A stretch of DNA of 64,000 bases from Isurus oxyrinchus (lineage: Eukaryota): positions 11,284,001-11,348,000 of the forward strand of contig JANJGN010000034.1 in NCBI GenBank assembly GCA_026770705.1. Direction: 5' to 3'. Every line of letters begins with the position of its first letter. Within the stretch, counting starts at the first letter, position 1. A model generated the notes under the pieces. That model had not been told where the DNA came from. It worked only from the letters and a program-made list of their open reading frames with translations, and ran no database searches. This document shows, piece by piece, positions 3,905-46,020 of this stretch. The position numbers and the translations under genes were made by a program.

Positions 3905-3947
3905 TCACCCATATCTTTGGTGTTCATTACGTGGCATGGGCTTATCA
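3905..3947 (-). CDS. Candidate terminal coding exon (S)DKPMPRNEHQRYG*
   Basis: ctcttgattccag| acceptor read in phase 2, stop at 3905-3907, AATAAA on minus strand at 3679-3684. Other acceptors cannot be excluded. Confidence 0.4.
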
Positions 3948-4680
3948 CTGGAATCAAGAGTGATCACGAATCTGGAGCATTAATACTGTTACCTTAAATC
4001 AGCTTTCTCAGTTTGTGCTTTGTTTGCATTTTGCAAGGGAGTCTTAAGTTTTTGGCCCAGAGCAACAACATTTTACATAACTAGCCAAAGATAAACACTC
4101 AGTTCACAATATAATCAAACTACAGGTGTTATTCTCAACTGCACACCCCGATTTCAACATCCTCAGTGGCAAGTGTTTAAACTGGACTCACGAGATAGGG
4201 TCATTTGTGAGCCAGCAGAGAAAACAATTGCCATAAAATTATTATTATTTTGTTGTAAAGCCTGACTAGTTCAGTAATGCCCTTAGTGGCAAATAGCATT
4301 TCACGCCATTCACTCTATATCAAGTTATAAGTTTTGGCAACCACTGAATACTATGAGGACACCTGGAGATCACAATTGAACACTGCCTTGTCATGTGATA
4401 TTCCTGCCTTGTGAAGAAATGAGGAGACATGACGCTGTGGATACTGAAAGGAAGGCTCCCCTTTGAGGGAGAAAGTGGATCAATGAGACAGAGTTTTAAA
4501 ATAAGGGTCATAATCAGTGCAGCCACGAACTTATTAAATAGTGGAGGAGATTTGAAGGAGCCGAATGGATTTCTCAGGCTCCTGATTCGTCTGCACGTTT
4601 GTTCTTAAATGGAAAATCCTACATTCCGTTTGCTTTTTTAAAAGATGGCAGATGACGTGTGAAATGTTCTTTCAACATAC

Positions 4681-4724
4681 CTCATCAATTCACTGTAAAC
4701 CGACCGATCGTGCACTTGTAATCC
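4681..4724 (-). CDS. Gene A cytoplasmic exon 4 GLQVHDRSVYSELM (second ITAM tyrosine)
   Basis: ttttaacag| ... AG|GTATGT, 44 nt, phase 0-2; completes YMGL-x7-YSEL. Confidence 0.85.
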
Positions 4725-4854
4725 CTGTTAAAATTAATAATATATTTGTTTTTTTAGTGAACAACAATAGAGTGCGTTAAAAGAGAACTGAGGTGAAATA
4801 TAGGATAAATAGTCAGTGAATGAAATAAAAGAATGCACAAAAAAATATCCTGAC

Positions 4855-4896
4855 CATATAAGTAGAGTCTTCCTCAAGTGGTTTTGTAGCTTGCTC
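4855..4896 (-). CDS. Gene A cytoplasmic exon 3 EQATKPLEEDSTYM (first ITAM tyrosine)
   Basis: tttttacag| ... ATG|GTCAGG, 42 nt, phase 0-0. Confidence 0.85.
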
Positions 4897-5372
4897 CTGT
4901 AAAAATGCAATTTGAAAAACGATGTATAAGCAGGTACACAAGAAATCCATGTGATTACTTCATAATTTAGAACGATTAGAATGTCATATATCCCACAATA
5001 AAAGTTATACCAATTTCCCTAAAATAACTAGCCCCAAATTAAATTTCAGGGGTGAATGTTCATTACTAGCACGTGGTGAAAGAGGAGCAACAGCGCACAG
5101 AATATTCATTTCACTCAGCACTCGGTTATCATGACTGTGGTAAAATTGAAAATTGACGCCAATATTCCATGCTGCAACAGAAGCATTGTTTGATAATCTT
5201 ATAAAAACAGGAACCAGTCCACTAACCGAGTAAGGCAAAGAACACCGAAACCCCTACCCTAGTCTAACTTATTGCCAAATCGAGTTTACTCCGACTGCAT
5301 GAACATTGATATTGTTATCCTCACTGGAATGAACTCGCCAATGTGACCATGTTTTAATACAATTGTACCAAC

Positions 5373-5437
5373 CTTTTGTTTTCTTGGAATATTTTCGTAG
5401 GCTGATGCTGAATTCTCCCCTATTGCAGCAGGGCTGC
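5373..5437 (-). CDS. Gene A cytoplasmic exon 2 SPAAIGENSASAYENIPRKQK (YEN motif)
   Basis: ttctcacag| ... AAG|GTTGGT, 65 nt, phase 1-0. Confidence 0.85.
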
Positions 5438-6808
5438 CTGTGAGAATGCAAAACAGTTAATCACATCTCCACATATAATCACAGAATCATACAATGACAG
5501 AGCACAATCGGAGGTCCTTTAGCCCACCATGCCAGTATCAGCTCTTTGAAGGTGAAATACAATTAATCCCATTCCTCAAACATTTTCGTACACCCTTGTA
5601 AGTTTCCTTAACGTACATATCCAATGTCCTTGTCCAACTGATATTCAATATGATTCCAACAAATGTTTATGTTATGCAACCCGATCATAGCAATTCGCTG
5701 CCTAAATAAAAATTTACACCTCACGCAGCCGTCTTTTTGGGAACTAGATTTCATTTTTACCACCTATGGCTGCTTACAGTTTCTCCTAATTTCCTCTATC
5801 ACGATATTTCCCGATTTTGAACACCTCTGTAAAATCTCCCATCAGCCTCCCTGCTGTAAGGAGAATAAGCCGAGCTACTCCCATTCCTCCACGGAGCTAC
5901 TTCTGTAAATCTGCAGTACACTCTCCTCAAGACAGTAACATTAGTCCTGAATCATTGCACCATGTACATGCCAATAGAGTGAGAACGGTTGCTTCATGTT
6001 CTGAGGAATTGCAGCTTTTGTTTCTTAGTTTTCTCTTTCTGTTTACTGGGGTGGACTCCGTTCGTGCTAATTTAATGATTACTTGAGTTGTAGGGTCAAT
6101 TTTACGAACTAAGGGTACACTTGGAACAGCCGTAATCAAGGAATGAAAATTGGTGGGAATCTAGTTCTACGTTTTTCAATATAACGCAGAAGAGATATCA
6201 AATCGGCTGCTGGTTCGCCATCATCTATTCTACATTAGAGAGATGGGCGCAATTGTCCTAGGTATTTCATCATGTGGGTGTTCCTGAAGCTGACAGATTC
6301 ACACTTTGAGCACCCAAGTAGCAGAAAACACAATGGTTAGTTCCAGGCAAAACCTTTGTCTCACCGTCAGCTCTGTATGTGCACACAAATCTATTCGGTT
6401 TTGAACTTTCACGAGGAATGTACAACTCACTGTAAAATGAAGCTTTCACATGAAAATAGATACAGAAGCATATATTGGATGTTATTGGTGTCAACGTATT
6501 TTCAGTCAGATATAATTTGCATGAACGATTGCTTCTTTTCACCATTCACAAGTTAGTGAAACCTATATTAAACAGAATGTTGAGCGATAGACATGTTGAT
6601 CCGAACTTCTTTTAAAATAGCATTTAGCTGTTAGGCAATTGTGCGTAAAAGTGCTCAACAAGAACAAGTTTATCTACATTGATGTGCAAACTTAAAGATT
6701 CATAAATCTGCCCGATGTATGCTTATTTGAATGAACTTCAACTCATAAAGCACTATTGACCCCTGCAACCATACATTCAACATGGAAATGCTAAAGTATT
6801 TCACTTAC

Positions 6809-6864
6809 TATTTTCTGTTGGACTAATGTTCGTTGCAATTTGCCCTTGCGTTGGTTGTTGCATC
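6809..6864 (-). CDS. Gene A cytoplasmic exon 1 MQQPTQGQIATNISPTEN
   Basis: tttctttag| ... |GTAAGT, 56 nt, phase 2-1, joins TM exon and Cyt2 in frame. Confidence 0.85.
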
Positions 6865-7029
6865 CTAAAGAAATGTAGTGCAACATAATAAAATAAACAT
6901 TTTCAGGACGATATAATATTGCAATCATGATCTGCAACAGAAATCCTATTTGATAATGTCTTATTATTAGTGAAAAATATTTTCCTAACTGGAAGGAACA
7001 AATTTCATCATGCTGGGCAACATCGACAT

Positions 7030-7165
7030 TATTTTATTCTTTTATGGGACGTGGGCGTCGTTAGCTGAGCCAGCATTTTTTATTGCCTATCCCTAATTGC
7101 CCTTGAGAAGACGGTTGTGAGCCGTCTTCCTGTGCCGCTGCTGTCCATATGGCGTAGGAGCACCT
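7030..7165 (-). mobile_element. CR1/SINE 3-prime tail fragment in the TM-Cyt1 intron
   Basis: gccagcattttttattgcctatccctaattgcccttgag tail motif. Confidence 0.75.
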
Positions 7166-7448
7166 AAAACAGTTTGAGTATTTGGAAGATGCAAAACTAA
7201 GGAACTGCATCAGCAACAGTAGTGGAGCGTTATCATACAAGAGTGGGGAACTAACAGTAGGTGATTTTTGTCAATCAGAAATATAAACGATTATTATTGA
7301 CTGTGTAAACCTGACTTATAAGTATATAGACTTGGACAGAGACATAAACATATTTTGAAACAACCTTTCGCGCATTTCCTTTGATTCAATTCATCAGGCT
7401 ACAGACAAACTACTAAAGGTGCAGATAACATTTACATAGACTATTTAC

Positions 7449-7572
7449 CAGCATACTTTCTTTTTGATCAGCCACGCGCTTATCCCGCTGATCATTCCCA
7501 GAATAAGTAGAACAACAATCACGATGCCTGCTTTGTGACCACTGCCTAATTCAGTGGTGGAGGAATGTTGTC
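7449..7572 (-). CDS. Gene A transmembrane exon QHSSTTELGSGHKAGIVIVVLLILGMISGISAWLIKKKVC(W)
   Basis: Acceptor gcattttcag|, donor |GTAAAT, 124 nt open, phase 1-2; ~22-aa hydrophobic segment with AGIVI motif followed by KKK. Confidence 0.9.
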
Positions 7573-8100
7573 CTGAAAATGCAATAAGAACAGATATTGA
7601 AATTAATATCAAATGCCGGAATCAATTAAACTCCTGTAGCAATGGGCCGGAATTTAAACACATTTTGCCATAGCGCTTGATTGCTGCTAAATTTCAACAT
7701 TCCAAGGAATAAAAATGGCCATCACAGTGTTCCTTCGAGCCAATGTGACACGTCATTTAAATACAAGCCTCTGCAGCTGCAAGGACAACCAGGTAATTCA
7801 GTTTTATGCTCTTGATCTCAAAATATTTTAAAAATTTCTCTCTACAGCTCTTAATGGGCCAATCAAGTCCTGAGCATCAAGGAATGCAATCCTGACTGTT
7901 GGCCGTGTTGTCTTCCAATTTTTCAGGAAGCGTTTCGTTTGATTCCCAAAAATATTAATTCCTTTCCTCAACTGAAGCCTACATTTCACATCTTGTCAAC
8001 TTCCATTTTCTTGTGCCTTGAAACCAGGTGGATTTCCCTTGGCAATCCCCTTCTGTTTCTCATCTACCTCATGCATCAGTGGCAACATGCCAAAATATAT

Positions 8101-8329
8101 AGCTAAATTTTATGGGGCGCTGTGGTCCCCATACCCAGGAGTGAATAAATCGGGAACCAGCCAATCCGCACTTCTGGCCCCTGCATGGAAATTCCTATGC
8201 CGAGCAGACAATTGAGGGATAAGAGCGGCGTTGGGGTGGGAGAGGGGCTGAAGTGGACAAGCCACTGTCGGGAGAGGAACAGGGAGACGGAAGACCTGCC
8301 GGTCCCGCCAACGCGCTATAAAATTGGCC
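8101..8329. mobile_element. Probable MITE with imperfect terminal inverted repeats
   Basis: agctaaattttatggggcg ... cgcgctataaaattggcc flank a GC-rich core. Confidence 0.45.
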
Positions 8330-8955
8330 ACATCTACATTCTTGAAAACAGGGTGCTAGTCATTTGCCCATCGTCAAAATGGATGCAGAAACTGGCTGCA
8401 TTAAATCTATTCCTCAGGGAAATGTTCACTGTGTAATGGACAAAGTCTCAATGGGCCAAACTCCGCCACTTTAGGACGAGGAAAGTGTGCTTTCTAACTC
8501 AAGTTACCCGGGAAAGGCAACATTTCTCAAAACTTTGACAATCCGGAAAAGCAAGCCGTTCCCGCTGCTACCATGCAGTGCCTCCGTGAATGGTACTTTC
8601 CACTAACAAGATGCTGCCTCAGCCCAAAAAGAATGCTCTGCCTATCACACAACTGAGCACCGCCATGCATCAATTGCAGTGCCGTTGTGATGCCATCTGA
8701 ATAAACCGTATGTCCCAGTGATTGGCTGATCGAATCAAGGAGCGTGTTATATTGGTTGTGCATAAGAGTGTTAAACGTTAAAAACAATGGTAAAAGTAGA
8801 GCCTAGGGAACAGATACTGGTATCTTGAAGCAGCATAACCTAATATGGCCAAACTGAAACCTAAATATAATTTTGATATGCACAGTACGTCTTTAATCTG
8901 GAAAACTGTAATAGCAATGCTTTTTATTCCGACGATGCATTTGGCAACAACTCAC

Positions 8956-9021
8956 TTTGCACATCCTCTTGTGTGTTGAGTTTCTCTGGGCCACTGACTA
9001 AATCCAAGTGACCCTGTCCTC
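8956..9021 (-). CDS. Gene A probable stalk exon GQGHLDLVSGPEKLNTQEDVQ (phase 1-1)
   Basis: Donor A|GTGAGT; acceptor is canonical in copy 2 (ctcctttag) but AG is changed to TG here, with an in-frame AG 3 nt downstream. Confidence 0.6.
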
Positions 9022-11029
9022 CAAAAGGAGAGCAGCGCTAACACAGAACAACTGAACCCACAAATGATAACGTGTATGGCGGTAAAGTGGCATTAGTGTA
9101 GCAGAATTGAGTTCCCACAGCTATATACATTCTTACAGCAATGAGTGGCTCTCCCTCTTTAGTGTACTGGAGACCGACAATCTATAGGCAAGCGAGGGAA
9201 TTCATGCCTTTGATGATTAAGACTACAGCCCTATATCTGCGAAATGCTGAGTCAAGCACAGTGGTTTGCTTATTGAAGCCACGCTCTAATTGCACCAAGC
9301 AAAGAAAGGGGGAAAACAGCCCAGTAATAATTATTTTTATATATATATTTGGTCACTCAAAGATCAAACGTAAGATTTTTCCCACAAGAAAATCAGCGCT
9401 TCTAATTTGAGGAGAAATATTTGTCGAAGCATGTCAGAAATAGTTATTTTTAAAATAGCATTGGTGTATGTAATTGGGAAATCATTGCATGAGCAAAATT
9501 TATTTCTATTTTTGCTTCGCAGTCTTCAAACTGAGCCTGTTACTGCATAAATAACAGATGTTTATGTATTTCGGTAATAAAATGTCAGAGACTCTCCATG
9601 CACATGGAACCCGATTACCGAGTCTCTGCTCATTCTTACAATCTTCAACAGTTCACCTCTTCGCAAAGTTCATATTCAAGTAAATATTAATGATGTCACA
9701 TGCTTTCGGGAAAAAAAACATCTAAGTTTAGCGAAGTCGCGGATTTTCGGCAGCCAAAGCACAATTTAAATAAATTCACAAGTAAACACCAGAATTGTGA
9801 AATTGAACCTGGGAGGGACGTAAACCAGGTAATATTATATATATTTCCAGTTACAAGCCTCGCACTAAATTCAGGTCAATTTAAGTATATGAAATTCATT
9901 ATTGAACGTGGTGAATAACAAGAGAGAAATGCAACACCGCCCAGCATGCATCCTTGTCCGGTCTAATATCCCTCGCTAATTATTGGCGCACAAACATTTT
10001 AGGATAAGTCGATGTCTACATGATAAATATCCGAAATATGAATGCATGTTAACAATTGTGTTTTAGCTTGTTACAGTCTATATCTATTCTGGTTGTGGTT
10101 GACTTGCAGTAACACAGCACAAGTCTGAACCATCCCTGCTTAATTCAGTTTTTATTTGTAATAAAAAACTTGCAAATACCAGTCAGCATGAATAGAGAAA
10201 AGATATAATCCTGCATGATCAATCTGGATGAAGCTACTTGTGAAAAACCTTGGAAAGGGCAATGCAGAGCGTTTCTTCGAACTGTAAGCAAGATTTCAGA
10301 AAAGTGTCAGTCAGAAGCAGAAGAGTTAATTACAAGCATCGGGGCTACGGGCCCTGGGTTACCAAAAGAATTAAACAGGCTGCAACGTTCAACAATGTAC
10401 GCTGACATTTTTTGAAACATGCAAGGAAGAAGACAATTCGGCCCAAGGTGCCTTGCAGACTCATTCAACTGTCCATCCAAATTGCCTCACTCCCTTGATC
10501 CTGCTCAAGGTGACCTTAAAATGTATATTCAATTCATTTACGGAAAAATAACATTGCATTTGTTTTCATCACACTAAGACGGAACACTCCAGACTTCTGC
10601 AATTTTCTGCAAAGAAAATGATTCTCATCTCCCCTAGCTGTTTCGCCAATTATCGTAAATCTGCATTGTCAAGTTGCCTATTCTCCAACCAGTTTCCCCT
10701 CATTCACTCTATCAAGCCCGGCATAATTTTGTAACCTCTACTTTACCTCATTCACAGGAAATCCGAAATTCTTTTGAGTGTGCACACCCCTGAAGTTACT
10801 CATCCCATATATCATTCTGTTAAGTGCCCCCTCCTACCTCCACAAAAGATCAGCGTACTTCGCAACGTATGGTGCAGTGAAAGGACATATAAATGTCAAG
10901 TGTAAAGTACTGAATGTAGGAAGACAAAGATAAATGGATGAACATGCCCTGCAAAGTATGTTGGTGCAAAACGATTAGCATCGAATTAGCGTAGTGAATG
11001 CAATAAAGTTGAATTTTCGCAGGAAGAAC

Positions 11030-11570
11030 ACGACAGTAGGTAAAAAATCAAAGGTAAAATTCAAAAGGAGTTTCGGGAGCAGAAAGGCCTGAGGTATATG
11101 TATGCATAAGTCATTGAATATGACAGGATCAGTTGAGTGAGTGGTTAGTAAATATACCTAGGCTTTATTAATGACGGCATTGAGTTATGTTAAACTTGTA
11201 TAGTACACTGGACCTGCCTCAGCTGCAGTATTGCGTCCAATTTGAACGCACTACACTTAAGGAAAGACCTGAAGGCGTTTGAGTGTGTGCAGGTAAGTTT
11301 CAAGAAATGGTTGCAGTGTTGAGAAATTTCAATTATCTTGAAAGTTTCAACAGGTTAGGACTTACAGGGAGAATAGAAGTTGAGAACTGGTTGGATTAGA
11401 GGGAGAAAATCATGGGGCACTGAAAAGCGTAGACCGTGAAAAATGCTCACATTAGTGGAAGGATTGAGGACAAAAGAAGCATCGAAGACATGAGGAAAAA
11501 CTTTGTCAAGCAGCTAGCGGTTGAGATCTGGAATGCTTGACCAGAGATTGGGCGGAGGGAGGTTCAATCG
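11030..11570 (+). mobile_element. Degenerate CR1 LINE fragment (second family)
   Basis: Similarity to CR1 ORF2 C-terminus (LYxTLxxPQLxYCVQF). Related relics at about 4400-4600 (+), 5480-5930 (-), 10440-10900 (-), 30060-30430 (+), 37250-37780. Confidence 0.65.
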
Positions 11571-11799
11571 AGCCACGTGGTAACGACATTGGAATTGTAT
11601 TTCAGAAGCCCAGGCGAACTGTATGACGTAGTGAGTTCAAATTCTACCGTGGCAGCCAGAGAAATTTTAATTCAACAAATAAATTTGTAATTGAAATCTA
11701 GGGTCAGTCATGGTGACTATGAAAGCATCATCAATTTTCTTAAAAACCCATTTGCTTCACTCATTTTTATTCGGGAAGGAAATCTGCAACCCTGCCCTC

Positions 11800-12620
11800 G
11801 CTAACATGCCCACGTTTAATCGGGGTATCTGTTCTACAATGAAAGCCAGTCCAGCAAGCATCCAGTTCACTCAAAGATCTGTGGCGTCTGCGGGTGCGTT
11901 AAGATATACGAGTCATGAAAGCTTCCTGGGTATCTAGCACAAACATGTCGGGTCTGCCTTCTGTGATCACAAATAAGCTGGGCGTTCAGAAACTGAAATT
12001 CTTTCCAGTTGATGAATTTCACAGGCGGCTGACAGGGAACTCAGAGGGCTACATGTGTGCAGCAGATGGCGCCCTGCACTTGTGGGTAACCACATATTGA
12101 TGTGAATACAACAGCTCTGGCAGCCTGGCTTTTGCAACCATCGTGGAGCTTACAGGTGAGCTCTATTGAAAAAGGTATCTGCCAAATGTAATATTTCCCA
12201 CATGACCCATTGGAGCCCTGGAATTATCTGCTGGCAAAAAAAGTGAAGCGAAGCTGTTACCTGCAAAGCCAGCTGCATGGGATGCCCTCCAACTCCTTGC
12301 AGCATCAGTTGTTCCCGGAGAAGGTGGCAAAAGTGAACTACCAAGTTGCTGGACAACCGAAGGCGACTGCAGCATTGTCATCTCTACATTCCCGTATATC
12401 TGCGGAGATTTCTGTATACCAGTGTTGGGCCACTGGTGTTCAATGAATTATCCTCTCTTTGGGAGCACCTTGGATTCTTGGGACGCCGCTGCTTCTTGTA
12501 GCTCATGTCGCTGCACTCTCTGGGCCTGTATGAAACGCCAATGGGCCCTTCTTCTCCTCATTGCATTAGAACGATAATCAAGGCCGGTTGCCTGCATCCG
12601 GCATTCTGCACTTTCAATTG
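11800..12620 (-). mobile_element. PIF/Harbinger DDE transposase remnant
   Basis: RLRLSSNLVVHFCHLL..GVGGHPMQLALQVTASLHFF and FINWKEFQFLNAQLICDHRRQTRHVCARYPGSFHDSYIL match HARBI1-type motifs. Duplicate at about 53090-53910. Confidence 0.88.
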
Positions 12621-13083
12621 TCTCTGTCAATGAATGCATTTCAGAATTTACTGAAACTTTTCCTTCACAGGTTTCCTTCCACCTCTGGGCCAGGAGGCCA
12701 ATGCAAAGACTTTGGCCTGAACTCCCTCTGGATGTGCATCCTCAGGCCTCCCCTTGAAAGTGTCGAACATACTGGGGGACCACAAGTGGCCAATCCTGCC
12801 CTTCAGACATGACTGTGCATGACTACGACCATGTGCGAGAACCCTGTCATGAAGAGGTATTAATGTCTATAGTGTCACTGGAAAATATGTTAAAATTACA
12901 ATTAGTGCAATCTGCATCTACATGTGTGCCTAAGCGTATGTCTGCGTGTGTCCTAACTTGGTTAACGCCAGCTAGTCTGAGTGATTTGATGCATGGTAGC
13001 TCAAGATGTTAATTGGATAAATAGGTGAAAGGCAATTTTCGATTAGCATTTGTTGAATAAACCATTCAAAAGAATGGTTAAAA

Positions 13084-13675
13084 TCTTACAACCAGATGGG
13101 AGATGCCAAGCAATGCGTTTATATTACGAATAAAATCGATGCAATGAAAGGATTATCGTTTAGAGAGGTAAAATTAAAAACCTAGCAACACAATAAAAAC
13201 TCTGCGTTCAAAGCAAATGCTAGGTATATACAGAAAGAAGTTTGTATCTATAAGTCAGAGGCATTTAAGATCTAACCAGCCTGTAAACCAACAACTGTGT
13301 CTGCAAAGGAAGCAGATTGAAAGGATCCTCACATTGAATTCTTAAGATCAAATGTGCTTTGTCTGATGTCTGTTTGAATTCTCTGCATTATTAGTGCCAT
13401 GGTGAAGTTTTACCTGGAAGTGAATAATGTTGGATTTCTTTAAAAGATATTGTGCGAGTCATTTGTGGAAACGTATATGCACTTAATTTGTTGTTAACTT
13501 AATAAACGTTTAATTTAGTTTTATACAAAAAAACCTCTTTAGGCCTGGTGGTTTTATTCCTGATTTCAGAGCTGCATTTCAAACACACGAATTAGAAACA
13601 TAGGTCATGACAGTTGTTCAAGTATCCTTATGGGATTTAAACAACTCAGCCTTTAGCAACTGCCGTGTCATAACA
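13084..13675 (+). mobile_element. Probable solo LTR
   Basis: Starts tcttacaacc, ends tcataaca, internal TATA-like and AATAAA (13501). Duplicate at 54374-54965. No clear TSD. Confidence 0.5.
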
Positions 13676-15279
13676 AATTCCCATCAGTGAATTGTCAGCA
13701 GGCCTCCCTGAGACTGAACACTCTATGCAGAGAACATATCCTTGTCATAATGGCAACAGGATAAGCATTGTGCTTTGTAATCCAGGACCACTTAACTGGG
13801 ATTAGTGAGGCTTGGAGTGTGCACGTAAACTGTGCAGAAGCCGTGGTCCTTGAATGATTCAACCGCCAAGCACTTCCATATGCCTTTTGGAGGAACAGAT
13901 GGCTAAACAAACCAACTCAAATGTAGCTCCAAAACTCAATGGATTCTCGAATGAATGCACACCCATTAGTCAAGGAGCAATAATCAATGGATATTTAACC
14001 CTAAAAGCCAGGTCTCAGCTGGGTCTTGTTATCCATGGCTTGAACAAACAATTAATAGGGTTTCCCATCCCTCCGCCCAAAGGATTATCCCTGACCTCCT
14101 CCCAGACACCTCTCATATCGAGATTTTCACATTTGTTTTTCAACTGAGTCCTTACTGAGTAAAGAAAAAGATGATTATTCTGACGCTTGTGATTACGAAC
14201 GACATCCACCAACCTCCACCTGCCAAACACCAGGTCCCTCTGTCCTCCTGCATAGCCACTGCCTCCTAATTCCACACCATCGTGTGACCAGCGTATCTTC
14301 CATTATTACCCTTCACCCCAATATAGTTCATACGGATATCCATTTTCTACTTCACCCCACAATTTCCTACAATGTTCATATCCCGACGTTCGTTGTTAGT
14401 GTGACCCCTTCCCTTCTCGAGGCAACAGACAACGTTACTTTCCGAAATCCCCACCCTCCACCATGAGACCATCCAATTACCTGCTGGAAATGCCTTACTT
14501 GAACATGGCTCTGCCCTCTGTATCCCAGTAGAATGCCCTGAAATCCCAGGACCAAATAGCTGAGATGAATAATCACATCCTGCCCACGATTCCCAGAATG
14601 ACAGCCATTGCCCATCGAAGCCTTTCCTGATGCAAGACCGGGACCAATACTTATGTCACACGTAGGGACCTTTAGCAAGGCCTGGGCACAGTGGCCACAT
14701 CCCCTGGACAGTCTCTTAAACTTGTCCCCTGAACAATTTTACACCCTTCCCCAGGCAATCTCTTAAACTTGCCCCTCATGGACGCTCATTCACCCTTTCC
14801 CTCTGGTCCACCTGCAACCCCTCTTCCCCAAGCCCTGCCACCATCATACACTTCACCCTTTGTCGGGCCCCCTATGCCCAGCCTTGGTGCAGTTTGTGCG
14901 ATAGGCACCTGAAATATCTCAATAACACTGTACAAGTTAGATGAAAGCATCGCCTACTAGCCTTTCAATTGTGAACGCAGTGAGAGATCGCCATTTCCAT
15001 GCTAGATATTTCCAGTCGTAAAACAGAACGACCAATTAGCCGCTTTTAGGGAACTTCGTTTGGACGGGGAACGTGATTTCAGCATGTTGACCTTTTAGTA
15101 AGCATTCATGACATTCTAATGAATGCAGATGGGCATCCCCCACATTGCTAATCCGGAAACCCGACCTGCCTTTAAGCTGCCTGCAATGTTGGCAGAAGAA
15201 AATCCCAAATTTTTTGCCTGCTGTCGGGAAACTGTTCTTGGCCTGTGACTGAGAAGCTGTGGGATCAGTAAGGCAAGGA

Positions 15280-15900: not shown

Positions 15901-18549
15901 CAGTGGCATTTGGCGCAGAGTATGCCATCCTAAATGATGGTTAGTTGTTGCCTTGTGCACTTTGCCCACTAACTTCCTACTCCCACTCTGAAAGGTGACA
16001 TGAAATTAAAACTTGCAAATTTAGTTACCATGGACAATACAGCCTCCTTTCTCTTATCCTTACTAACCTCCCCCAATAGTTTTCATCATCCAAAAACTGT
16101 CAGCTGCTCAGCACCTTCACAGAGAATAAGATTTGAAGAGGAAACACAGTCACTGAACCAAATGGTCGCAGCCACCAGCCCAGATATTTGCACACTTGCA
16201 TAACTGAGAGGCTAGTTTCAGAATCAGAATCTGCAAGTACTAAGTCATTAGGCATGCTTGGGCTGCAGCCAGGACAGGGTATAGGTGAGCTCCTGTGCCC
16301 TCTCATGATGCCCATGACACCTCCATCGCTCATTCATAACCCCATGACCCCTCATATCTACCAGGCTCCGCATACACTGTGCATAACCACTCATCCAGTA
16401 TCCACTATGTGCAGAGCACATGAGACAAGTGATGCCAAACGAAAAGACTTTCAAATGCACTACAAAAAAATTGCATCTCTTACATGCACAGAAAATGTCA
16501 ACCAAACGTGCATCCATTCATAATCCAGAGATAAAACTTCAGTCCTAATGGCGGAAAGAAATCTCTTAAGTGGTCATTAAGTTGTGAAATTAAACAACCA
16601 CCCATTCAAAAAAAATGCATTAAAGAAACTGAAACCAATGGCATGAGCATAAAACAGTCAGTTCGCTTCACAGCTGTGTCAACAGATCCCCTGATGAGCT
16701 CAGTGGTTTCTGAAACTCAGCCAAGTATTCCTAATGGGCTCAGCTGCAAAAAACAGACTATTACAGCGGAAAAGAATTATCACTTTTGAAGTAAAAGGAA
16801 TGGATGGAGAGGTTTTCTTCTCAAAATTTCAGTTTAGACCAGGAACAAATGGACAGATTTTTTTCAATCTTCAGATCACAAAAAACAGGCTCCCCCTCTC
16901 ACATTTTTACATGTTTTTGAACGCATAAGTACAATTTCCGCAATGAAAATATACCCTAATGCATCTCAATACGTAACCAGTTCTGGTCAATGTAATTCTC
17001 AACTTATCTTTTAAGGGCAGATAGTTCTGATCAATCATTGTATTAAAAACATAATTAAAGCGATAGAAAAACCATGAACACACACTTACACGGGTACACC
17101 GTCGTTAAAAGCACATATTATCTTACACCATCTAAACATGTTTGAACATATGTGTCAAAACGCTCAGGACTCCAGAGTAGTATTTCCCCCATGATTGTGA
17201 AATCCTCTGCGGAGCCATGAACGGCATCGCCTTGGAAAGGTTGCCCTAAATGCATCAACATTGTACGGGGCTTTCAAAGGTACACACCTCCAGCAACAAC
17301 AACAACACCGCCCCCCCCCCCCCACCCCCGCTCACCCTCGCCCCGCAATGGAATCAGAACAGTTGCGAGTACAAGGTACAGGGTCGCTTTCCTGTGCCGG
17401 CAAAAGCTGCTGACAATGGGAATGGGGCGGGTATCTTAGAATCCGGCCCCACCCACCAATTTTATAGACCTTCTGACTCGGTATGAAGGCACAAAAAGCC
17501 AGCCCCATGTGTGTGAATCTGTGTTTAAAACCTTGCGATGAGCCCTAGTGGACAAAATAATCTGCATTGTGAAATGTTGTTCAGGGAAGCCTCAAGTTAC
17601 AAGATATATTCAATAACCTGTATAAAAGGTTTGGTAAGTAATCATGGGGCCTGGTACACTATGTAACACCAGAATTGGTTGATGCTGTCTATGGATTTGG
17701 GTAATGTTGTTTGTAGCATCGAACCCAGCCTATGTGAAACTACCGCCCTACTGCGGTCTGACACTACTCTCCTGTTTTACACAGTACTTTCCAAATACGG
17801 ACCCACAACAAATTGGAGGTCAGTCACTCCACCTCTACTGCAATTATAGTATTAGTCGTCCATTCAGATAAAAAACGTGCCTCCACTATATACAGGGGAC
17901 CAATTTGTGAGCAGCAAATGCAGTAGACTAAATTTAAAGATGTGTAAGTGAATCGCTGTCTCCCTTGGAATGCATAATTGAGTCCTTGGAAGGTAAAGAG
18001 GGGGAGATAAAGGGGCAACCGATAGGCCTTCTCCAATTCCATGCAAAGGAGTGAGATGTTGGGCGCGTTGGAAGACTGGACCAAGACGTAATGGAGGGAA
18101 ATGTTCCTATGGAATGCTGACAGGAGACGTGATGGACTATTAAAGTGAAGCTTGGGATTTAGGAAGATAATTAGCATAAAAGTTTCCTGCTAGTATGAAA
18201 TGCTTTAAAATGCAACATGAAATAAAATGACAAATAGATTTCACCATTAATGTGTTTCCCATTCACCGATATCAAAGTGGAAGTCTTCATTTGGAAATAT
18301 GCATGGAAGAAGGCTATGGAAAACAGTTCAAGGGTTAAAACAATTTGATAGTTCGATACTTCATAGCATCAAATTAACAGTTATTTGTGAGTGCAACAAG
18401 TGCAATGTTACCCCCAATTCTATCAACAAAACTAACAGGACCAAAGAGCTGCACTTTCTTTCTATTCATACAGTTAACTATTAAATAACTTGACCTTTGC
18501 ATGGGTGAAATATAAGTTAATGAAATAGGATTCAGAAATGTGTACTTAC

Positions 18550-18809
18550 TTATTACAACTTTTTGTTTGGTTGAGGTGTTGTTCCTTTTTGTTAATCCGT
18601 TTTAGGGGCTGAGAGGTATGTGTTCCAGCGCCATTCAAAGTAATGCTAGAAATGATGAGTTGTTGCCCTTTTTGCTGCAGAGAGGCATTGTTGATACACT
18701 ATTCTAATTCTGCAGGGAGGTTTGAGGCCATAGAACACGAGAAATTAATGGTTTTTCAAAAAGATAAGCGGACAAATCAGAGTCTATGGATATGTTTGGG
18801 AGATTGGGT
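18550..18809 (-). pseudogene. Gene A IgC2 B-type exon, disabled
   Basis: PNLPNISIDSDLSAYL / TINFSCSMASNLPAELE*CINNASLQQKGQQLIISSITLNGAGTHTSQP / GLTKRNNTSTKQKVVI|GTAAGT; CEACAM B-domain pattern; Trp to TAG, second Cys to Ser, -1 and +1 frameshifts. Confidence 0.88.
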
Positions 18810-19004
18810 CTAAGTAAAATAAGTGCGAAATATATTTTAATAACATTATGCTAAAATGAAAAGCAGCAGTGGAGTATACATTTATGGCAATCACCAACAT
18901 CAGAGAACCTACGCATCCTTGTGTTTTATGCACTCCATCATGCAAACATAAGTCAATAAGTTGTGCCATTTTCCCCGGTGCTCACTGGTGGGATCCAATG
19001 TCAG

Positions 19005-20930
19005 TTTTTTATTATTTCGTTCATGGGAGGTTTCAATTACTGCCAGGCCAGCATTTATTGCCCATCCCTAGTTGCCCTTGATAAGGTGTTGGTGAGCTGC
19101 CTTCCTGGGACACTGCAATCCACATAGAGCACGTGTACCCACAGTGTATTTGAGAGGGTTGGGTGTGGTGGTGGGCTGGTGTTTCCAAGATTTTCTTCCA
19201 GCAGTAGTTGAATTTCCAAGTCAGGGTGGTATGTGGCTTTAGGTTGGGGGTTAGAAGGGTGGTGGCGATGGTGGACGTCCTGGTGGTTCTCTTCCCACTT
19301 GTCTGCTGCCCTTCTCCTCCGAGATAGTCGGGGTCCTGGGTTTGGGATGGGCTGTCTAAGAAGCATTGGTCAGCTCCTGCAGTGCAAGTTGCAGATGCAT
19401 CGACATTGCTGCTACTATGCGTCGGAGGTGGAAGGAGTAAATGTTTGTGGATGAGCTGCCAATCAAGTAAGTTGCTTCGTCCTGGATGGTGTTGAATTTC
19501 ATGAGTGTTGTGGGAGCTGCATTCATCCAGGCAAGTGGGGAGTATTCCATCACACTCCTGACTTGTGCCTTGTAGGTGGTGTACAGCCTTTGGGGAGTCA
19601 GCAGCTGAGTTACTCGTCACAGAATTCCCAGCCTCTTACCTGCTCTTGTCACCATGCTATTTATATGGCTAATCCAGTTCAGGTTATGGACAATGCTAAT
19701 CCCGAGGTTATTGGCAGTGTGGGATTCAGTGATGGTAATGACTTTCAATGTCATGAGGCAGTGAATAGATTTTCCCTTTTTGGAGAGGTTCCTAACAATT
19801 GTGTGGCACGAATGTTACTTGCTACTTGCCAGCCCAAACCTGGATATTGTCATGGTCTTGCTGCATTTGGACATGGATTGCTTCAGCGTCCGAAGGGTCA
19901 CAAATGGTACTGAATTTTGACAATCATCAGTGAACATACCTCCTTCTGACCTTATAATGGGAGGAAGATCATTTATGAAGAAATTGACGATGGATTGGGG
20001 GAGGGGATTATCCCGATGAACCCACGCAGCGATGTCCCAGAGCTGATATGATTGATCTCCAACAACTAGAGCCAACTTCCTTTGTGCGAGGTAAGACCCC
20101 CACCAGCTGACAGCTATCCTCCTCTTATCCATTGGTTTTACTATTGCAAAGGCTCCTTGAAGCCACATTCGGTCGAATGCAGCCTTGATGTCAAGGGCAG
20201 TCACTCACACCTCAACTCTGGAGTTCAGATCTTCTGCCGATGTTTGAACCAAGGCTGCAATTGTTCAAACCATTACAGGAACTGAGCGATTTTTGTGGAT
20301 CCCAAAGTTGGCATTGGTGAGTTGGTTATTTCGAAGCAAGTGTTGCTTGATAGCACTGCTGGTGATCCCCTACACCACTTTTCTGACTGTAGGGAGAAAA
20401 CTGTTAGCGCAGTAATTGGCTGGGTTGGATTTCTAATGCTTTTTGTGCAGCGAACGTACCTGGGCAAATTTCCACAATGGCGGGTAATGCCAGTGCTGTA
20501 GAAGCCAATGCTGCAGCTGTACTGGAACAGCATGGCTAGGGTCGCAGCAATTTGAGAAACATAAGTCTTCAGTTCTGTTGCCACAATATTGTCAGGGCCC
20601 AAAGCCTTTGCAGTATCCAATGCCTTGAGCTGTTTGTTGATATCTCATGTAGTGAACGGAATTGACTGAAGACTGGCACGTGTAATGCTGGGGAACTCCG
20701 GCAAGGCCGAGATGGATCATCTTGGCACTTATGGCTGGAGATTGTTCCAAAAGCCTCAGCCTTATCTTTTGCATTCACGTGTTGGTCTTCCCCATCATTT
20801 CGAATGGGGATTTTTGTGGAGCCTCCTCCTCCAATGAGTGGTTTAGTTGTCCACTACCATTCACAATTGGATGTGGCAGGACTGCAGAGCTTAGATCTGA
20901 TCCGTTGATTATGGAATTCTTTAGCTCTGC
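19005..20930 (-). mobile_element. CR1-clade LINE, 5-prime truncated ORF2 (RT) remnant
   Basis: ALDIKAAFDRMWLQG, FINDLPPIIRSEGGMFTDDC, AKALGPDNI, MEYSPLAWMNAAPTTL; 3-prime tail gggcaataaatgctggcc. Confidence 0.92.
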
Positions 20931-20964
20931 CAGGTTAGCAATGATGGCACCAGAATTGAACCTG

Positions 20965-21350
20965 GGGAGATTGTGGTGCAGTACCATTAACACTGTATTC
21001 GTAATTCAAAGGCCCAGCATAAGGCCCTGGGGACATGGGTTCAACTGCTACCACAATATCTAATGGACTTTAAATTAAATTAATAAATCTGGAATATAAT
21101 GCTAGTCTCAGTAATGGTGACTAACCAGGGCAACTATCAGTCATAGACAGATAATCAAGCTGGTTCACTAATGTCCTTTGGGGTAGGAAATCTGTGGTCC
21201 CTAACACTTATGGCTTCCAAACACACAGATATGTGGTTGACTCTCAACTGCCTTCTGAAGTGGCCTTGTACGCCATTCAGTTCAAGGGCAATAAGGGATG
21301 GGCGGCAAATGCTGGCCTTGCCAGTGACACCCACATTCCATGATTTTTTT
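20965..21350 (+). mobile_element. tRNA-derived SINE with CR1-type 3-prime tail
   Basis: A/B-box-like head (gtggtgcagt..gggttcaact) and tail gggatgggcggcaaatgctggccttgccagtgacacccacattcc shared with the adjacent LINE. Duplicate at about 62225-62610; truncated relative at about 11575-11790. Confidence 0.75.
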
Positions 21351-22143
21351 AAAAATAAATGCCAAGGTCTCCTGAATCTGATGATTTCTAATCACGTTTG
21401 TTGAATACATATGTACATTTGGAGTTCAGGGATGGAGAGGATATGATTCCTGCTGTGAGCTGCAATTTTAAAATGTGAGATCTGTACAAACCTGCTGGGC
21501 ACATACAGCAGTATGGTTGCATCAAAATGTATTGTTCTGAGAAAAAATATCTATTAAAATTTGAGTTGGACAATTATGATTCTTTCCCTCAAACCAGTCT
21601 GAAGTTCATCTTTTATCGGATTTAAAAATAAACTTACTAACTTCATTGAAAATATTCGTAATGAAACCCGAATTTTCACTGAAGCATCACACAACCGTTC
21701 AAATACTACGTACAGTAAACTCGTATGCGTTACATCATCTGGTGTTCCCGCTCGTAGAATTAAGATTGAGCCGTTATGTCTAATGGCTTCTGGGATCATA
21801 CCACAATAAGTTCATCACCCCCAAAAGTTAATTCATTTAAGATTAGTCTGTAAACAAAGAAGTGTATAGCCAACAAATACTGTTCAATACTATCAATTAT
21901 CAATGAACATATATTGTATGGTGAGTTCTGTCTCAAAAACATCTAAGTATTTCGAGTATACTTATTTAAATAAATAATCTCTGAGGCAATATTCCTTGGC
22001 AATGTAAAAGTGTTGAGCTATTAGTTTACATGTTTCAGTAAATAATCCTTATATGCAAACAATCATTTATTTCCCTTTTCCAATCTGAAATGTAGCAGGT
22101 ATGGTGATAAGTTACAAAAATAATGATCTGTTGGAGCACCTGC

Positions 22144-22437
22144 AGCTACCATTTAGATTGGTTCGGTCACTTGTTACTCTGCAAAAGGAGTTGAATGCTT
22201 GGCACTTGAATCGTCCATCAGACCTAATCACTAGTGATATATAGTGAGAAATATAGTGAGAGTTCTATTACCACCACTTAGATCAAAGCTGCTATCCGTA
22301 ATAATAGCGCGATTATCCTCAAGCCACTGATATGAAACTGCAATGCCTGATACGATGCATGTCAGATGTCAATACGGTGTCATTGTATTTGACTGTGTTG
22401 GTGACATTGGTGATAATATTAGGTTTATAAACAGGTT
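22144..22437 (-). pseudogene. Gene A IgC2 A-type exon, frameshifted
   Basis: tttgacag|EPVYKPNIITNVTNTVKYNDTV / LTCIVSGIAVSYQWLEDNRAIITDSSFDLSGGNRTLTI / SLVIRSDGRFKCQAFNSF..SDRTNLNGS; matches the CEACAM A-domain pattern; two frameshifts, a 12-bp tandem duplication and a degenerate donor. Confidence 0.88.
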
Positions 22438-25149
22438 CTGTCAAAACACAGGAAAGTAGGTATCAGACCTTAAAAGTAAATTTGGAGGATGGTGGATTTA
22501 GCTCCAAGTTCTAAAGGCAGCATTTCATTTTGAATTTTCATCTGTTGTTTCCTTTCGGTAATAATTCCTGTGATGCTGGTGTTAATAATTCTACGATCTT
22601 TATCCCCACCCCACTACCCCCACGCAACCCCCACCTCCCCCTCACCACACGTGCCCCGCACACCCACACCCTCCGCCCCCAACGAGGTAAACCTGTCTCC
22701 TTGAATTTATTGCTCACTTAGAATATCAACTTAAATAAATTTCCAATCATGAAAGGAACATAGCCTACTAAACCAATTACAGACTCGGTCCTAAAATAAA
22801 ATGTCCTCTCCCCGAAGACCTCGAACCTAATGTATTTATTTGAAGATAGAACATGCGTAGAGGTATCTTATAGCAGACTGAACTGTTGTGGAGTTTCCCT
22901 AAATCAGCTCTTCGGATTCTAACTTCGACTCCTAGGATATTTTGATCATGTATGTGGGCTCGCGGGAGAATATAGATTGGGGACTGCAACTCTTGTGCAC
23001 TTAGTTAATACATGTTTTAAATCAAAGCCAAATATATATTACAGCTAATACATGAGACATATAGATGATAACTAAATCAAATCATATCATCTCAATAATA
23101 TTTAAGGGAAATACATTTTAACCCACCATAATCAGCAGTTTTTTTTTTGCATAAAAAACAAATATCAATTAAAGGTAATCATACGCACAAACCATTGTAA
23201 TTACTCAAGATTCTGGAGTGTCTTTGTCTCAAATATAGGGAATCCAAGCTTAGACTGATACTCATTCTATGGCTGCAAAGAAGGCCAAAAGATTGTTGAC
23301 CTATGGGCAACAATACCATCTGTCTGTTTATAAACATCGCAGCTGAACACAAAAAGGCTTTTGTTATTCATTGGTGTTTGTGATTCCAAAAGAAAAAGCA
23401 GTGAATGAAAATAAGCTATTTATCGGATCAATGTCATTGGTGAGTGTAGATAAGAGACATTTACAGACTAAATGGAAACATTTTGGTTGGCAGCCTTTCA
23501 AATAGTAGAGAGACAATCCAAAGGCTTTTTTGGTTATCTTTGGACTTGAGATCCTCGCAACGATTCATGTAGTGTATCCATGCTATAATATCAAGCTATA
23601 TGCCTAATTGCTTTCCTCTATTAATGTTAATTAGTGCGTCTTAAATTTGCAATAATTGTGTCAGGTTTGTCACACGGTGAACTTAAACCGGGCAAGATCT
23701 ATCTGTTGATCCCTGAGATTCAGACTGCGCAGCAGAGACCTGGACTCCAGTAATATAACATTCTGCCCTTCTCATCATTCTCAAAATAAGAGCCAAACTA
23801 CTCACTGCAATAAAAAAAGTTTCTCCTCATAATACTTTTGTTTATTTTATTGATTACTTTAAAGTGGTGTCCTCACGTTCTCGATCCATTTCTACTGGGA
23901 ATAGGTTCTCCCTAACTACTCTATCCAAACCCCTCACTATTCTGATACCTCCATGGAGCAGTTCCACTGTTGAGAAACCTACAGCTGGAATTTTAGCTTG
24001 ATGGCGCAGCTGGGCTGAGTGCCAGTCAGAAATCGGGCTCCAGAGGCTCTTGATGTTTCTCACTGCTCGCTCAGCCTCTCCGTAGCTTGGAAACGGACAG
24101 GCAACTGCTGACAAGAGCGATCCCATTGAGCTTGGCAAATTTTCTAAAGTGCTCATGGAAGGATTGTGGTCTGCAGTGAGACGGTTTTATCTGGAAACCC
24201 ATGTGTGTAAAGTATGGCCAGCAGCATCTTGCACGGTTTCGTCCATCACCTCATAAACACAGGGCGGGACTGGTGGACTAATAGACTGCAACAAGGCGGC
24301 AGCAGCCCGCCGTTCGCATGTAGGGTGTTGAAAGGAAGACACAGGGGTCCGCCCCTATGTCGTCAGTGGCCAGCCTGCCCCCTGCCTCTCACTCCAGCGC
24401 GTTTATGGGCCGGCAGCTACTGCAACGCCAACTGGGGAATTAGCAAATTAACTTTTTCAACACTTCTTTCGCGCGACCGCCGTGCACCAGGGCTGTGCTG
24501 GAGAGCGCTACCTCGAAACAGGAAGTGCTAAATGTTACCCGCGCTGCGGCAAGGCCATAGAGACCGAGCATTTAACGTCTGAGCTGTGCACTCGCTGCCC
24601 CTCCCCAGCCACCAGTGAGCACAAAGGAAGTCACTATTGTCACAAGCATAGCAAGGTGCTATTCCGTGTCGGGGGCCACCCCACACTCCGTCATATCACC
24701 TCTGAACCAGCATTTTGAAAATGACACAGGCACTGCTCCAACATGGGCCACTGGACGTATTCAGGTTTCTGGGCAGTTCAACTTCCACAAAGTCACAGAT
24801 TCTTGAAATTCTCCATCCCTGATGGTGTCTGAATAAATCAACACCGAGACCGTGAGTACCGATCCACCCGATAATAGGAAGCCCGTGCAGTGTCCATTCT
24901 CCAGGTGTTCTTCAAAAGCAGGAAAGCGGAAAATTGTGATATTTGAACAACTTGTTTGGAAAAGGTCAGGACACCGGAACATTACACACAAAAATGCCAA
25001 AGACACGAGATATTACTCCCAGATCAAGAACTGGCACGTTGCATGGTGCTGCGCCATCCCAGTTAAGTGGGACCGCTGATTGTCTCCCGCTCCAGCAATG
25101 TCTCAAGTTTGAAAAGGTTAAATGGCACTAAGTCCGAGTCACCTCTTAA

Positions 25150-25470
25150 TCTCCGTGAGCCCCTTCTGTCCCCTGAAATCACTGCGATCCTCCAATTCTG
25201 GTCTCTGAATTACCCCGAACATTAATCACTCTTTCACGGTCGGACATTGCTGTTCACCTGCCTCAGTCCTAAATTCAAGAAATCCGATCCTGAACATTTC
25301 CACTTCTCTACCTCTCCCTGTTCAATAAGCAGCTTAAAACCGTTCCCTTTCACCGAGGTAACAGTCACTTGTCCTCTTTTTTTGCCCGGTGTCAAATTGA
25401 ATTTAGTAACAGCGCTAAGAAGCAGCTCGTGACGCTGTGTTAGGTTAAAGGCCTATATAATTGTTAGGTT
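25150..25470 (+). mobile_element. L2-type LINE 3-prime end
   Basis: LRSSNSGL..CLSPK remnants and tail gttaaaggcctatataattgttaggttgt. Confidence 0.65.
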
Positions 25471-25729
25471 GTCTCGTTTTGTTTACTGGCCCTGTGTTAT
25501 TGAAAGGATGACCTTAAATCGCCACTGGGTGGAATTTCTCCCTGAGCCGGCAGCACAAATCGGGTGCGGTCACTTTGGCCGTCCATTAAAGCCCGTCGCC
25601 GTACCCCACGGCTCTTCCCCACACTCTGAATATCGGACCCCTCTCCGGCTTAGATCTGGTTTCCCGTTCCTATTTAGATCATTTGACCTCCTGGCGAGCA
25701 GGAGGCTAACGGAAGACGGCCGGCGACAG

Positions 25730-26065
25730 GGAAGTAATGCGATAAAGGCCGCAGACTCCCTCTACGTTCAACTGCGGCAGCAACACTGGGTGCTCAGCTC
25801 TGAATGGACGGAGGTCAAGTCCGATGTTTATCGTCCCTCCCTATTCCAACGACAGACTGACCGATACCTTTCTCCCTGAATACTCAGTTCCTATACCCCG
25901 CCTCAGTCGACGGCTCCACTGGGTTTGCGGGGGGTGGGGGAGTTGGTGGGGGCGGGGGGGCTGGGGGGGTGGGGCGATGGGGACGGATGGGTGGAAATGC
26001 TTTGCCTCCGACTGTCACATTTATCTGAATGTTTTCTTTCAAGGTACTTAAACCCTGGGGATCAG
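25730..26065 (-). pseudogene. Gene A IgV-like N exon, disrupted
   Basis: Acceptor ctttccttag| then ADPQGLSTLKENIQINVTVGGKAF, a ~70-bp C-rich insertion, then VEPSTEAGYRN*VFREKGIGQ (conserved Trp changed to TGA); aligns with gene B N exons. Lower boundary uncertain. Confidence 0.75.
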
Positions 26066-26231
26066 CTAAGGAAAGGTAATCACATCAGTGAAGCGAAGCG
26101 GCCAAACTCGACACGGCATTTTCATTTCTAAACTGATAATTCCTGTTATATTTTAACCTGATTCTCTGACAAGCTCTTTTTGTCTTCCTTCTCTATCTTT
26201 AAAAGAAATCATAGGAGAAATTGATACTCAC

Positions 26232-26283
26232 CTTTATCCATTAATAAGCAAAGAGCGACCACAGTTAAAAGGGGTCTGATCAA
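26232..26283 (-). pseudogene. Gene A leader exon, (M to L)IRPLLTVVALCLLMDK, start codon mutated to TTG
   Basis: 52-nt hydrophobic exon ending G|GTGAGT (phase 1); same length and position as the gene B leader, which has ATG where this has TTG. Confidence 0.8.
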
Positions 26284-26319: not shown

Positions 26320-26405
26320 CAACTCGGTGACTGACCCGCACTTCCTGGTGTGCAGAGCAGATCAGGTCAATCATTGGCTAAAGCTGCAAAGCTGATTGGA
26401 CCGAG
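26320..26405 (-). promoter_or_regulatory. Gene A proximal promoter: CCAAT box (ctgattggaccg 26392-26403) and ETS-type site (acttcctg 26340-26347)
   Basis: Immediately upstream of the leader and alignable to 39700-39780 upstream of gene B. Confidence 0.55.
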
Positions 26406-39151: not shown

Positions 39152-39204
39152 ATGAGGAAAATAAACCCGTAATGAGAAAGGCGGTCACACTCGGCACATC
39201 GTTG

Positions 39205-39616: not shown

Positions 39617-39668
39617 CCACAGGTATCAATAAATAAACATGTCCCGCGCTAAGTGTCAGTCTCCACAT
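39617..39668 (-). pseudogene. Gene B leader exon MWRLTLSAGHVYLLIPV
   Basis: ATG at 39666-39668, 52 nt, G|GTGAGG donor (phase 1); homologous to gene A leader. Confidence 0.75.
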
Positions 39669-45976: not shown

Positions 45977-46020
45977 CTCATCAAGTCACTGTAAACCGAC
46001 CGATCGTGCACTTGTAATCC
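45977..46020 (-). CDS. Copy 2 cytoplasmic exon 4 GLQVHDRSVYSDLM
   Basis: 44 nt, intact AG/GT; single E to D change keeps YxxL. Confidence 0.85.

Follow-up and report, generated by a model that had tools for sequence, protein, structure and literature searches.

DAP12, FcR-gamma and CD3-zeta are small proteins with an ITAM in which a phase-0 intron interrupts the first YxxL, and what defines the DAP12/FcR-gamma type is an acidic residue in the transmembrane (TM) helix together with an extracellular Cys dimer. The transmembrane adaptor proteins or TRAPs (LAT, NTAL, PAG, LAX and GAPT) have a short extracellular part, a single TM helix and a tail with several tyrosine motifs (PMC4861716). Then there are the N-only, ITAM-bearing CEACAM receptors of the CEACAM3/CEACAM4 type, among them human CEACAM3, dog CEACAM24/25 and great white shark XP_041032829.1. 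ITAM-bearing CEACAMs are recognized by an ITAM split in phase 0 and by a YxN in cytoplasmic exon 2 (PMC2832619, PMC5112662), and their loci by LIPE as synteny marker (PMC5112662, PMC3628338). In the open-access literature we found no report of an ITAM-bearing CEACAM without an N domain, nor any study of shark CEACAM clusters at the level of genes.

The window analyzed here, a stretch of 64,000 nucleotides from Isurus oxyrinchus, contains two of six tandem copies, W1 to W6, each of 41 kb, in a shark CEACAM cluster. By its sequence the locus belongs to the CEACAM family, having a leader, a Cys-free IgV-like N exon, IgC-like A and B exons in phase 1 and a TM exon. Pfam finds V-set (weakly, below the cut-off) and Ig_3 in its domains, whose best solved-structure matches are to CEACAM1 (E 5e-4), and the LIPE synteny comes from HSL_N matches located at C34:12.44-12.46 Mb, some 0.5 Mb beyond the analyzed cluster; querying a word index with the intact N domain gave no matches. 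Both tail features are present too, the phase-0 intron within the first YxxL and the YxN in cytoplasmic exon 2, within a set of five cytoplasmic exons (the last of one or two residues) as against four in mammals. Three paralogs in the cluster are intact, with an L-N-A-B-TM-Cyt layout. The parent gene of the W copies, represented by P7 and P8, has the CEACAM3-like leader-N-TM-ITAM layout, and the great white models read leader-N(1,4,5,6)-TM-ITAM. The intact N-domain exon and leader of functional ITAM CEACAM receptors are there in P7 and P8 and missing from all six W copies. The W copies thus share family, leader, TM and tail with the CEACAM3/CEACAM4 type but have neither an N exon nor a signal-peptide start, and so no ligand-binding domain. 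By the criterion of PMC2832619, with N deleted and the first ATG gone, they would be filed as pseudogenes.

All the features described here lie on the reverse strand. The initial annotation had read the A and B exons as disabled in both window copies, and they are. The A exon (22144..22437) has lost its donor (GT to GC) and gained insertions of 3, 1 and 14 nt; the B exon (18550..18813) has an acceptor turned from AG to AC, an in-frame stop (TGG to TAG) and two 1-nt indels. By sequence comparison their dead counterparts in W2, the second copy, span 59810..63719 (B at 59,810-60,073, A at 63,426-63,719). The A donor change and the B stop are common to 8/8 related copies, so A and B were, on this comparison, inactivated early, ahead of the subfamily's radiation. 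N-bearing relatives skip both exons: an RNA contig joins N to TM, and the great white models have this layout. Those eight copies carry nine copy-specific lesions in A and B. Apparent new stops, one in A and four in B, proved on inspection to be artefacts of gap placement or consensus codons, leaving two real new indels.

The leader and the N exon had likewise been called disabled. For the leader (26232..26283) this holds: its first codon is TTG in both window copies, indeed in 6/6 W copies, where P7 and P8 have ATG. Its phase-1 donor is intact, and an in-frame ATG (MDK) lies at 26,241 in a weak context, with T at -3. Great white models begin with a leader of this type. Just upstream, 26340..26400 is the likely promoter, with two elements that we take to be CCAAT boxes and another that we take to be ETS-like, all kept in the six W copies and P7. 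For N the reading has to change. The N-like exon at 26,065 (25700..26065, with only an approximate 3' end) is an old pseudo-exon that keeps its acceptor but not its frame, broken in P7 and P8 as well and unused in great white models. The working N exon is gone altogether, removed with a second leader by a 1.85-kb deletion whose junction lies at 24996..24997 and whose breakpoint, compared with P7, is identical in all six W copies. Further upstream sits an orphan leader (39617..39668), and behind it, at ~38,850-39,460, lie two N exons with frameshifts.

The signalling half had been described as open, from a stalk exon through TM to Cyt1-4. TM and Cyt1-4 are indeed free of stops, frameshifts and splice loss in both copies, but the separate stalk exon dissolves: in RNA contigs and in great white models, TM directly follows N or the leader. 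Two stalk candidates were rejected, one at 10,238-10,281 because nothing in the three intact paralogs corresponds to it, the other, at 21,640-21,848, because it is intron sequence that is closed in them. The TM exon (7449..7572, phase 1-2) encodes a short stalk, the hydrophobic helix and KKKVC, and its phase-1 start fits the phase-1 end of the leader, as had been predicted. Behind it come Cyt1 (6809..6864), Cyt2 with YENI, the YxN (5373..5437), Cyt3 with the first ITAM tyrosine and the phase-0 split (4855..4896) and Cyt4 with the rest of the ITAM (4681..4724), all of them spliced in RNA contigs. The motifs first noted (KKKVCW, YEN and the ITAM) are all present, the last two as YENI and YxxL-x7-YxxL, and the W tails retain every invariant family residue. 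In W2 the open TM exon (48,748-48,871), Cyt1-4 and likely last exon occupy 43381..48871, again by sequence comparison. The likely true last exon, with the start of its coding part and the stop at 2085..2091 and a 3' UTR continuing downstream, has an acceptor at 2,092 that is kept in 15/15 matches and yields the C-terminus of great white models; it lies outside the stretches compared with RNA contigs. A terminal exon at 3,905-3,947 was rejected since its acceptor AG occurs in only 7 of the 12 copies listed; RNA covered it in none of the four runs compared, which alone proves nothing.

Lacking a stalk exon, and with a last exon that begins at 2,091, the predicted product has 115 aa from the ATG at 26,241 (exon arithmetic would give 129 aa were the TTG the start) instead of the 150-170 aa first proposed. 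It would have a 19-residue N-terminus, a strongly hydrophobic helix and KKK plus Cys on the inner side. The suggestion had been of a LAT/DAP12-like adaptor, and it is the LAT half that survives: like the TRAPs, the predicted product has a short extracellular part, one TM helix, a juxtamembrane Cys and several tyrosine motifs, a Grb2-type YxN among them. It would not be homologous to them, being CEACAM-derived, with an ITAM, three tyrosines only and a single Cys. That Cys, a candidate palmitoylation site, is a legacy of the receptor, and of 11 aligned relatives only 2 have it. With DAP12 and its kind the product would share small size and the split ITAM, but its helix has no acidic residue and there is no extracellular Cys, so no means by which it might pair with a receptor is known. 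Is anything of this sort modelled elsewhere? No N-less model is found among the great white cluster members listed. Basking shark XP_078389779.1 (127 aa, uncharacterized), the only tail-only match among the best 150 representatives, is an Ig-less TM-ITAM model of the same family; unlike the W product, it is an automatic model without a spliced leader, its ATG lying in the intron that precedes TM in the intact-type gene.

The predicted leader-to-TM junction does occur in RNA. One contig, from one run of one sample (X7), joins the donor of the 26,232 leader directly to the TM exon, with canonical splice sites, W-specific bases on both flanks and 27/27 loose letters matching that leader. Its first letter lies exactly 30 letters ahead of the point at which spliced and unspliced forms part, where a genuine branch of a 31-mer graph would put it. 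Its depth is low (10.5), and its 3' half has P8-type bases, making it a mosaic relative to this assembly. Among the four runs compared over the TM exon X7 is the only one with this junction; X6 and X8 list no such contig and X10 has nothing on the TM exon, none of which is proof of absence. W-type Cyt1-4 are spliced in X8, a second run from the same sample. None of the listed runs bearing matching contigs is recorded as RNA, and five DNA-like runs (X1-X5) were left out. The idea that exon skipping made the product is thus half right: leader is spliced to TM, but no skipping newly evolved, since N was deleted when the gene was already leaving out A and B.

Does selection keep the tails open? 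On substitutions, the W copies look neutral. Variable sites among them number 20/374 in tail exons against 213/3668 in introns (p=0.82), and the N:S count of 12:6 (omega ~0.74) is the ratio of dead A plus B (25:13). Relative to neutral, the rate of amino-acid change is 0.83 on W branches and 0.46 on N-bearing ones, a difference that is not significant (one-sided p=0.10). P8 and its great white counterpart, compared as proteins only, differ at 2/109 tail residues, whereas W copies differ from one another at up to 10. None of the 12 W-crown changes falls in a tyrosine motif (P ~0.28), and functional family tails are poorly conserved outside their motifs (32% mean column identity), so a high omega is compatible with function. 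Lesions say something else. Across the eight related copies with A and B, none was observed in the tails against ~9 expected, beyond chance; among the six W tails there are none (stop, frameshift or splice) against 3.2-3.7 expected (P 0.02-0.04), which becomes P ~0.2 when the two copies that first drew attention are set aside. The direct control is small, only two new lesions in A plus B among W copies. Siblings P0 and Q, N-less or N-broken, do carry tail lesions. The test of erosion set at the start is therefore split: intronic rates and sibling lesions speak against an adaptor, the clean W tails for one. The early caveat that a functional paralog may have homogenized the tails fits as well, divergence of W from P7 falling from 9.4% upstream to 4.6% from just upstream of TM.

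On balance we lean toward the view that the W copies are a transcribed, in-frame by-product of a deletion, under relaxed constraint, rather than a selected adaptor. The parent was a CEACAM3-like leader-N-TM-ITAM receptor in which A and B were already dead and skipped. The ancestor of the six copies lost its working N exon in the 1.85-kb deletion, and the first leader ATG became TTG; the leader was then spliced straight to TM, as seen once. Translation would begin at the ATG at 26,241 and end in the last exon, so that nonsense-mediated decay would be escaped, and the protein would presumably insert N-out/C-in without a signal peptide. The tail would have stayed open mainly through selection until recently, given ~7% summed divergence since the functional paralog split, and would now be near-neutral. 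A rival reading, which we hold only tentatively, makes the N-less 115-aa product a working LAT-like adaptor, selected and amplified six-fold, that would recruit Grb2 through YEN and Syk through the ITAM downstream of other receptors, or serve as a sink. The exact junction with W-specific bases on either side, the splicing of W-type Cyt1-4 in the second run, the lesion-free tails with their invariant residues and the match to the TRAP description (PMC4861716) are what such an adaptor would lead one to expect; the intronic substitution rate, a lesion deficit that fades after ascertainment beside so small a control, a junction in 1/4 runs, the missing great white model and motifs and Cys that are inherited, not new, pull the other way.

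Less likely still, the W copies would be effectively silent pseudogenes that make no protein, the leader-TM contig being rare mis-splicing or in part an assembly mosaic. A single shallow contig with a P8-type 3' half, the weak ATG context and the sibling runs X6 and X8 are in keeping with this, but canonical sites with W-specific flanks, a start that fits the graph branch and the W-type Cyt exons spliced in X8 speak against silence. It is very improbable that the W tails are used with the 39,617 leader, which keeps its ATG and donor in all W units and is compatible in phase, or by trans- or long-range splicing from P7 or P8, where N is intact: the hydrophobic core of that leader is degenerate and varies non-synonymously, P0 has exactly this layout and a broken tail, and the only N-to-TM contig, from X6, has a TM of P8 type.

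What would it mean? Should the protein not be functional, the cluster still shows that sharks arrived a second time at the CEACAM3-like N-only ITAM layout, through the silencing of A and B, and that in a young duplicate an open signalling half is weak evidence of function. It is possible, if doubtful, that one deletion of 1.85 kb made a selected, transcribed, signal-peptide-free LAT-like ITAM/Grb2 adaptor, amplified six-fold, out of a CEACAM3-like pathogen receptor. If so, a receptor would have given rise to a transmembrane adaptor whose parent gene is still adjacent. And if its product works, one genome would show every stage between a full Ig receptor (L-N-A-B-TM-ITAM) and a receptor-less adaptor, with the N-only receptor in the middle, and thereby a testable route for the origin of small signalling adaptors.

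The anatomy of the two genes in the window, a dead ectodomain followed by an open signaling tail, is real; they are N-less because a single deletion struck an N-only receptor. A 41.3-kb tandem repeat inside the window (C34 11,284,001–11,348,000), 95.7% identical over 22 kb, belongs to a cluster for which CEACAM-like models from the great white shark are the nearest named proteins. CEACAM1 is the top solved-structure match for the cluster's N (binding) domain, and LIPE, which PMC5112662 and PMC3628338 treat as a marker for CEACAM synteny, lies on the window's own contig, JANJGN010000034.1 (C34), at 12.44 Mb. The 4.98-Gb genome has 13 matches to the transmembrane (TM) exon, every one of them inside the 11.27–11.81 Mb interval of C34; exons were mapped over C34 11.244–11.908 Mb. 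The window's subfamily comprises nine TM copies: the N-bearing P8 (TM exon at C34 11,584,614) and P7 (11,538,952), the N-less tandem copies W1–W6, of which the window contains W1 and W2, and P0 (11,267,394), an N-less or N-broken sibling. Independent W copies may number fewer than six, since some W pairs differ by less than 1% and a stretch of Ns lies between W2 and W1.

Three near-identical genes, I1–I3, have an intact layout of leader, N, A, B, TM and cytoplasmic (Cyt) exons with an ITAM. Their region (C34 11,656,000–11,843,000) is a 73.6-kb triplication in which A, B and tail are identical or nearly so and the N domains differ at several residues, the pattern expected of diversifying selection on a binding domain. 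Cyt4 (C34 11,803,482–11,803,541) is 60 nt in the intact genes versus 44 nt in other copies, shifting the last-exon frame after the ITAM; the longer form is also in a basking shark model. An oppositely oriented CEACAM (C34 11,875,700–11,906,800, + strand), with repeated A/B exons and an N exon 95% identical to that of the ITAM gene, may be the inhibitory member of a receptor pair; its tail lies outside the region analyzed.

The parent gene can be recognized in relatives. Great white models begin with the same type of leader as that at 26,283 in the window and continue with 1, 4, 5 or 6 N domains (4, 5 and 6 being judged by length), then TM and tail; A and B are absent from both model sequences read. 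In sequencing run X6, a contig joins the end of an N exon straight to a TM exon carrying five differences diagnostic of P8, and sharks, rays and bichir have relatives of 221–240 aa that match a full leader-N-TM-ITAM query. These three lines of evidence indicate that the skipping of pseudo-N, A and B is inherited. It also has precedents of its kind: PMC2110893 describes N-only ITAM CEACAMs in dog, and PMC2832619 in mammals generally. P8 itself (C34 11,601,100–11,609,800) has four tandem leader-N cassettes of 2.27-kb period, three with intact leaders, ahead of a single TM-ITAM tail. Great white models read such cassettes as 4–6 consecutive N domains; each could alternatively serve as a first exon pair.

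A and B were dead before these copies diverged, because a GT>GC change in the A donor and an in-frame B stop are common to all eight copies having both exons; subfamily copies are 7–9% apart. Intact N exons are found in P7 (one) and P8 (four). Relative to P7, all six W copies lack 1.85 kb at a single breakpoint (window 24,996/24,997), a deletion that cost them the functional N exon along with a second leader. What the initial annotation regarded as the gene's N, at 26,065, is an older pseudo-exon, broken also in P7 and P8. The leader at 26,283 starts with TTG in 6/6 W copies and with ATG in P7 and P8. The dead B exon (18,550–18,813) differs by ~9% between two W lineages versus 3.6% in flanking introns, an excess that may reflect local conversion or hypermutation.

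Splice evidence was drawn from five (X6–X10) of ten listed runs, none of the ten being on record as RNA; X6, X7 and X8 are one sample. The joints TM–Cyt1, Cyt1–2, Cyt2–3 and Cyt3–4 are present in spliced form, so the runs contain transcripts of the CEACAM family. One of the four runs checked for the TM exon (X7) gave a leader–TM contig, 203 nt long at depth 10.5. Its 27 loose letters 5' of TM equal window 26,234–26,260, the MDK allele, which W1, W2, W3 and W6 carry and P7 and P8 lack. The contig enters TM with W-type bases; from the TM end into Cyt1 it is P8-type, which makes it a mosaic relative to the assembly. Either the assembler merged sequences over 59 identical nt, or the allele is recombinant. 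An X8 contig is spliced from Cyt1 to Cyt4, its Cyt2 one letter off W1 and fitting W5/W6 only. The proposed leader-to-TM junction has thus been observed directly, once, in one run of one sample, which gives no expression level.

Over the whole eight-copy history, which includes N-bearing genes, the tail has been selected: the eight A/B-bearing copies have no tail lesions against ~9 expected (P ~1e-4), and their A/B exons have nine copy-specific ones. For the W tails the evidence is close to even. They carry no lesions against 3.2–3.7 expected (P 0.02–0.04; 0.18–0.23 once the path linking the two copies behind the original finding is omitted), and the direct control, A+B, has two new lesions among W copies. 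Neutral drift, to which a birth-and-death cluster gives a higher prior, fits the W substitutions: variable sites number 20/374 in exons (a count taking in the originally annotated 3,905–3,947 segment) versus 213/3668 in introns (p=0.82). TM–Cyt4 has 12 non-synonymous and 6 synonymous changes (omega ~0.74, p=0.60 versus neutrality), and dead A+B 25:13. Between P7 and P8, exons are the more conserved, differing at 16/374 sites versus 354/3650 for introns (p=0.0002), although synonymous sites are also low. Amino-acid change proceeds at 0.83 of neutral along W branches, compared with 0.46 along P branches (p=0.10); 2/109 tail residues differ between P8 and its great white counterpart, and 0–10 among W copies. 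W–P7 divergence is 9.4% and, around window 8,000, falls to 4.6%, so W and a copy with an N exon exchanged tails not long before the W copies radiated. P0 has lost the Cyt1 donor and second ITAM tyrosine; in Q, another N-less or N-broken sibling, it is the Cyt2 donor and the first tyrosine of the ITAM that are gone. Of the signs that the initial annotation held to count against its reading, then, a near-intronic rate is seen in W tails and lesions in P0 and Q; no W tail has one.

The predicted product runs from an ATG at 26,241 through TM and Cyt1–4 to a last exon at 2,091, placed there because its acceptor is kept in 15/15 matches and great white C-termini agree. A stop in the last exon is not expected to cause decay; the W stop lies there, so decay of the W transcript is not expected. 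The protein would have 115 aa, not the 150–170 first proposed, and includes the proposed Cys, YEN and ITAM, in the order KKKVC, YENI, ITAM C-terminal to a helix whose best hydrophobic 19-mer is residues 20–38 (mean hydropathy 2.67). Positive charges past the helix suggest an N-out topology. DAP12-like adaptors have an acidic TM residue and an extracellular Cys; the predicted product has neither, and the DAP12 likeness falls away.

No paper on an N-less ITAM CEACAM or on shark CEACAM gene structure came up in searches of open-access literature, and the best 150 of 249 representatives included no tail-only protein except a basking shark model, which begins within an intron. I1–I3 keep an in-frame intronic ATG 15 codons 5' of TM (C34 11,665,601, 11,739,208 and 11,812,794); it is at this ATG that the basking shark model, XP_078389779.1, starts, which would make for another potential Ig-less isoform.

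In an alignment of 11 relatives, residues of YEN and the ITAM vary little or not at all and the juxtamembrane Cys is present in two; judged by this alignment, all three elements of the W product are inherited. The predicted protein fits the transmembrane adaptor protein (TRAP) type as characterized in PMC4861716, and it might work as an adaptor, doubtful as that seems to us.
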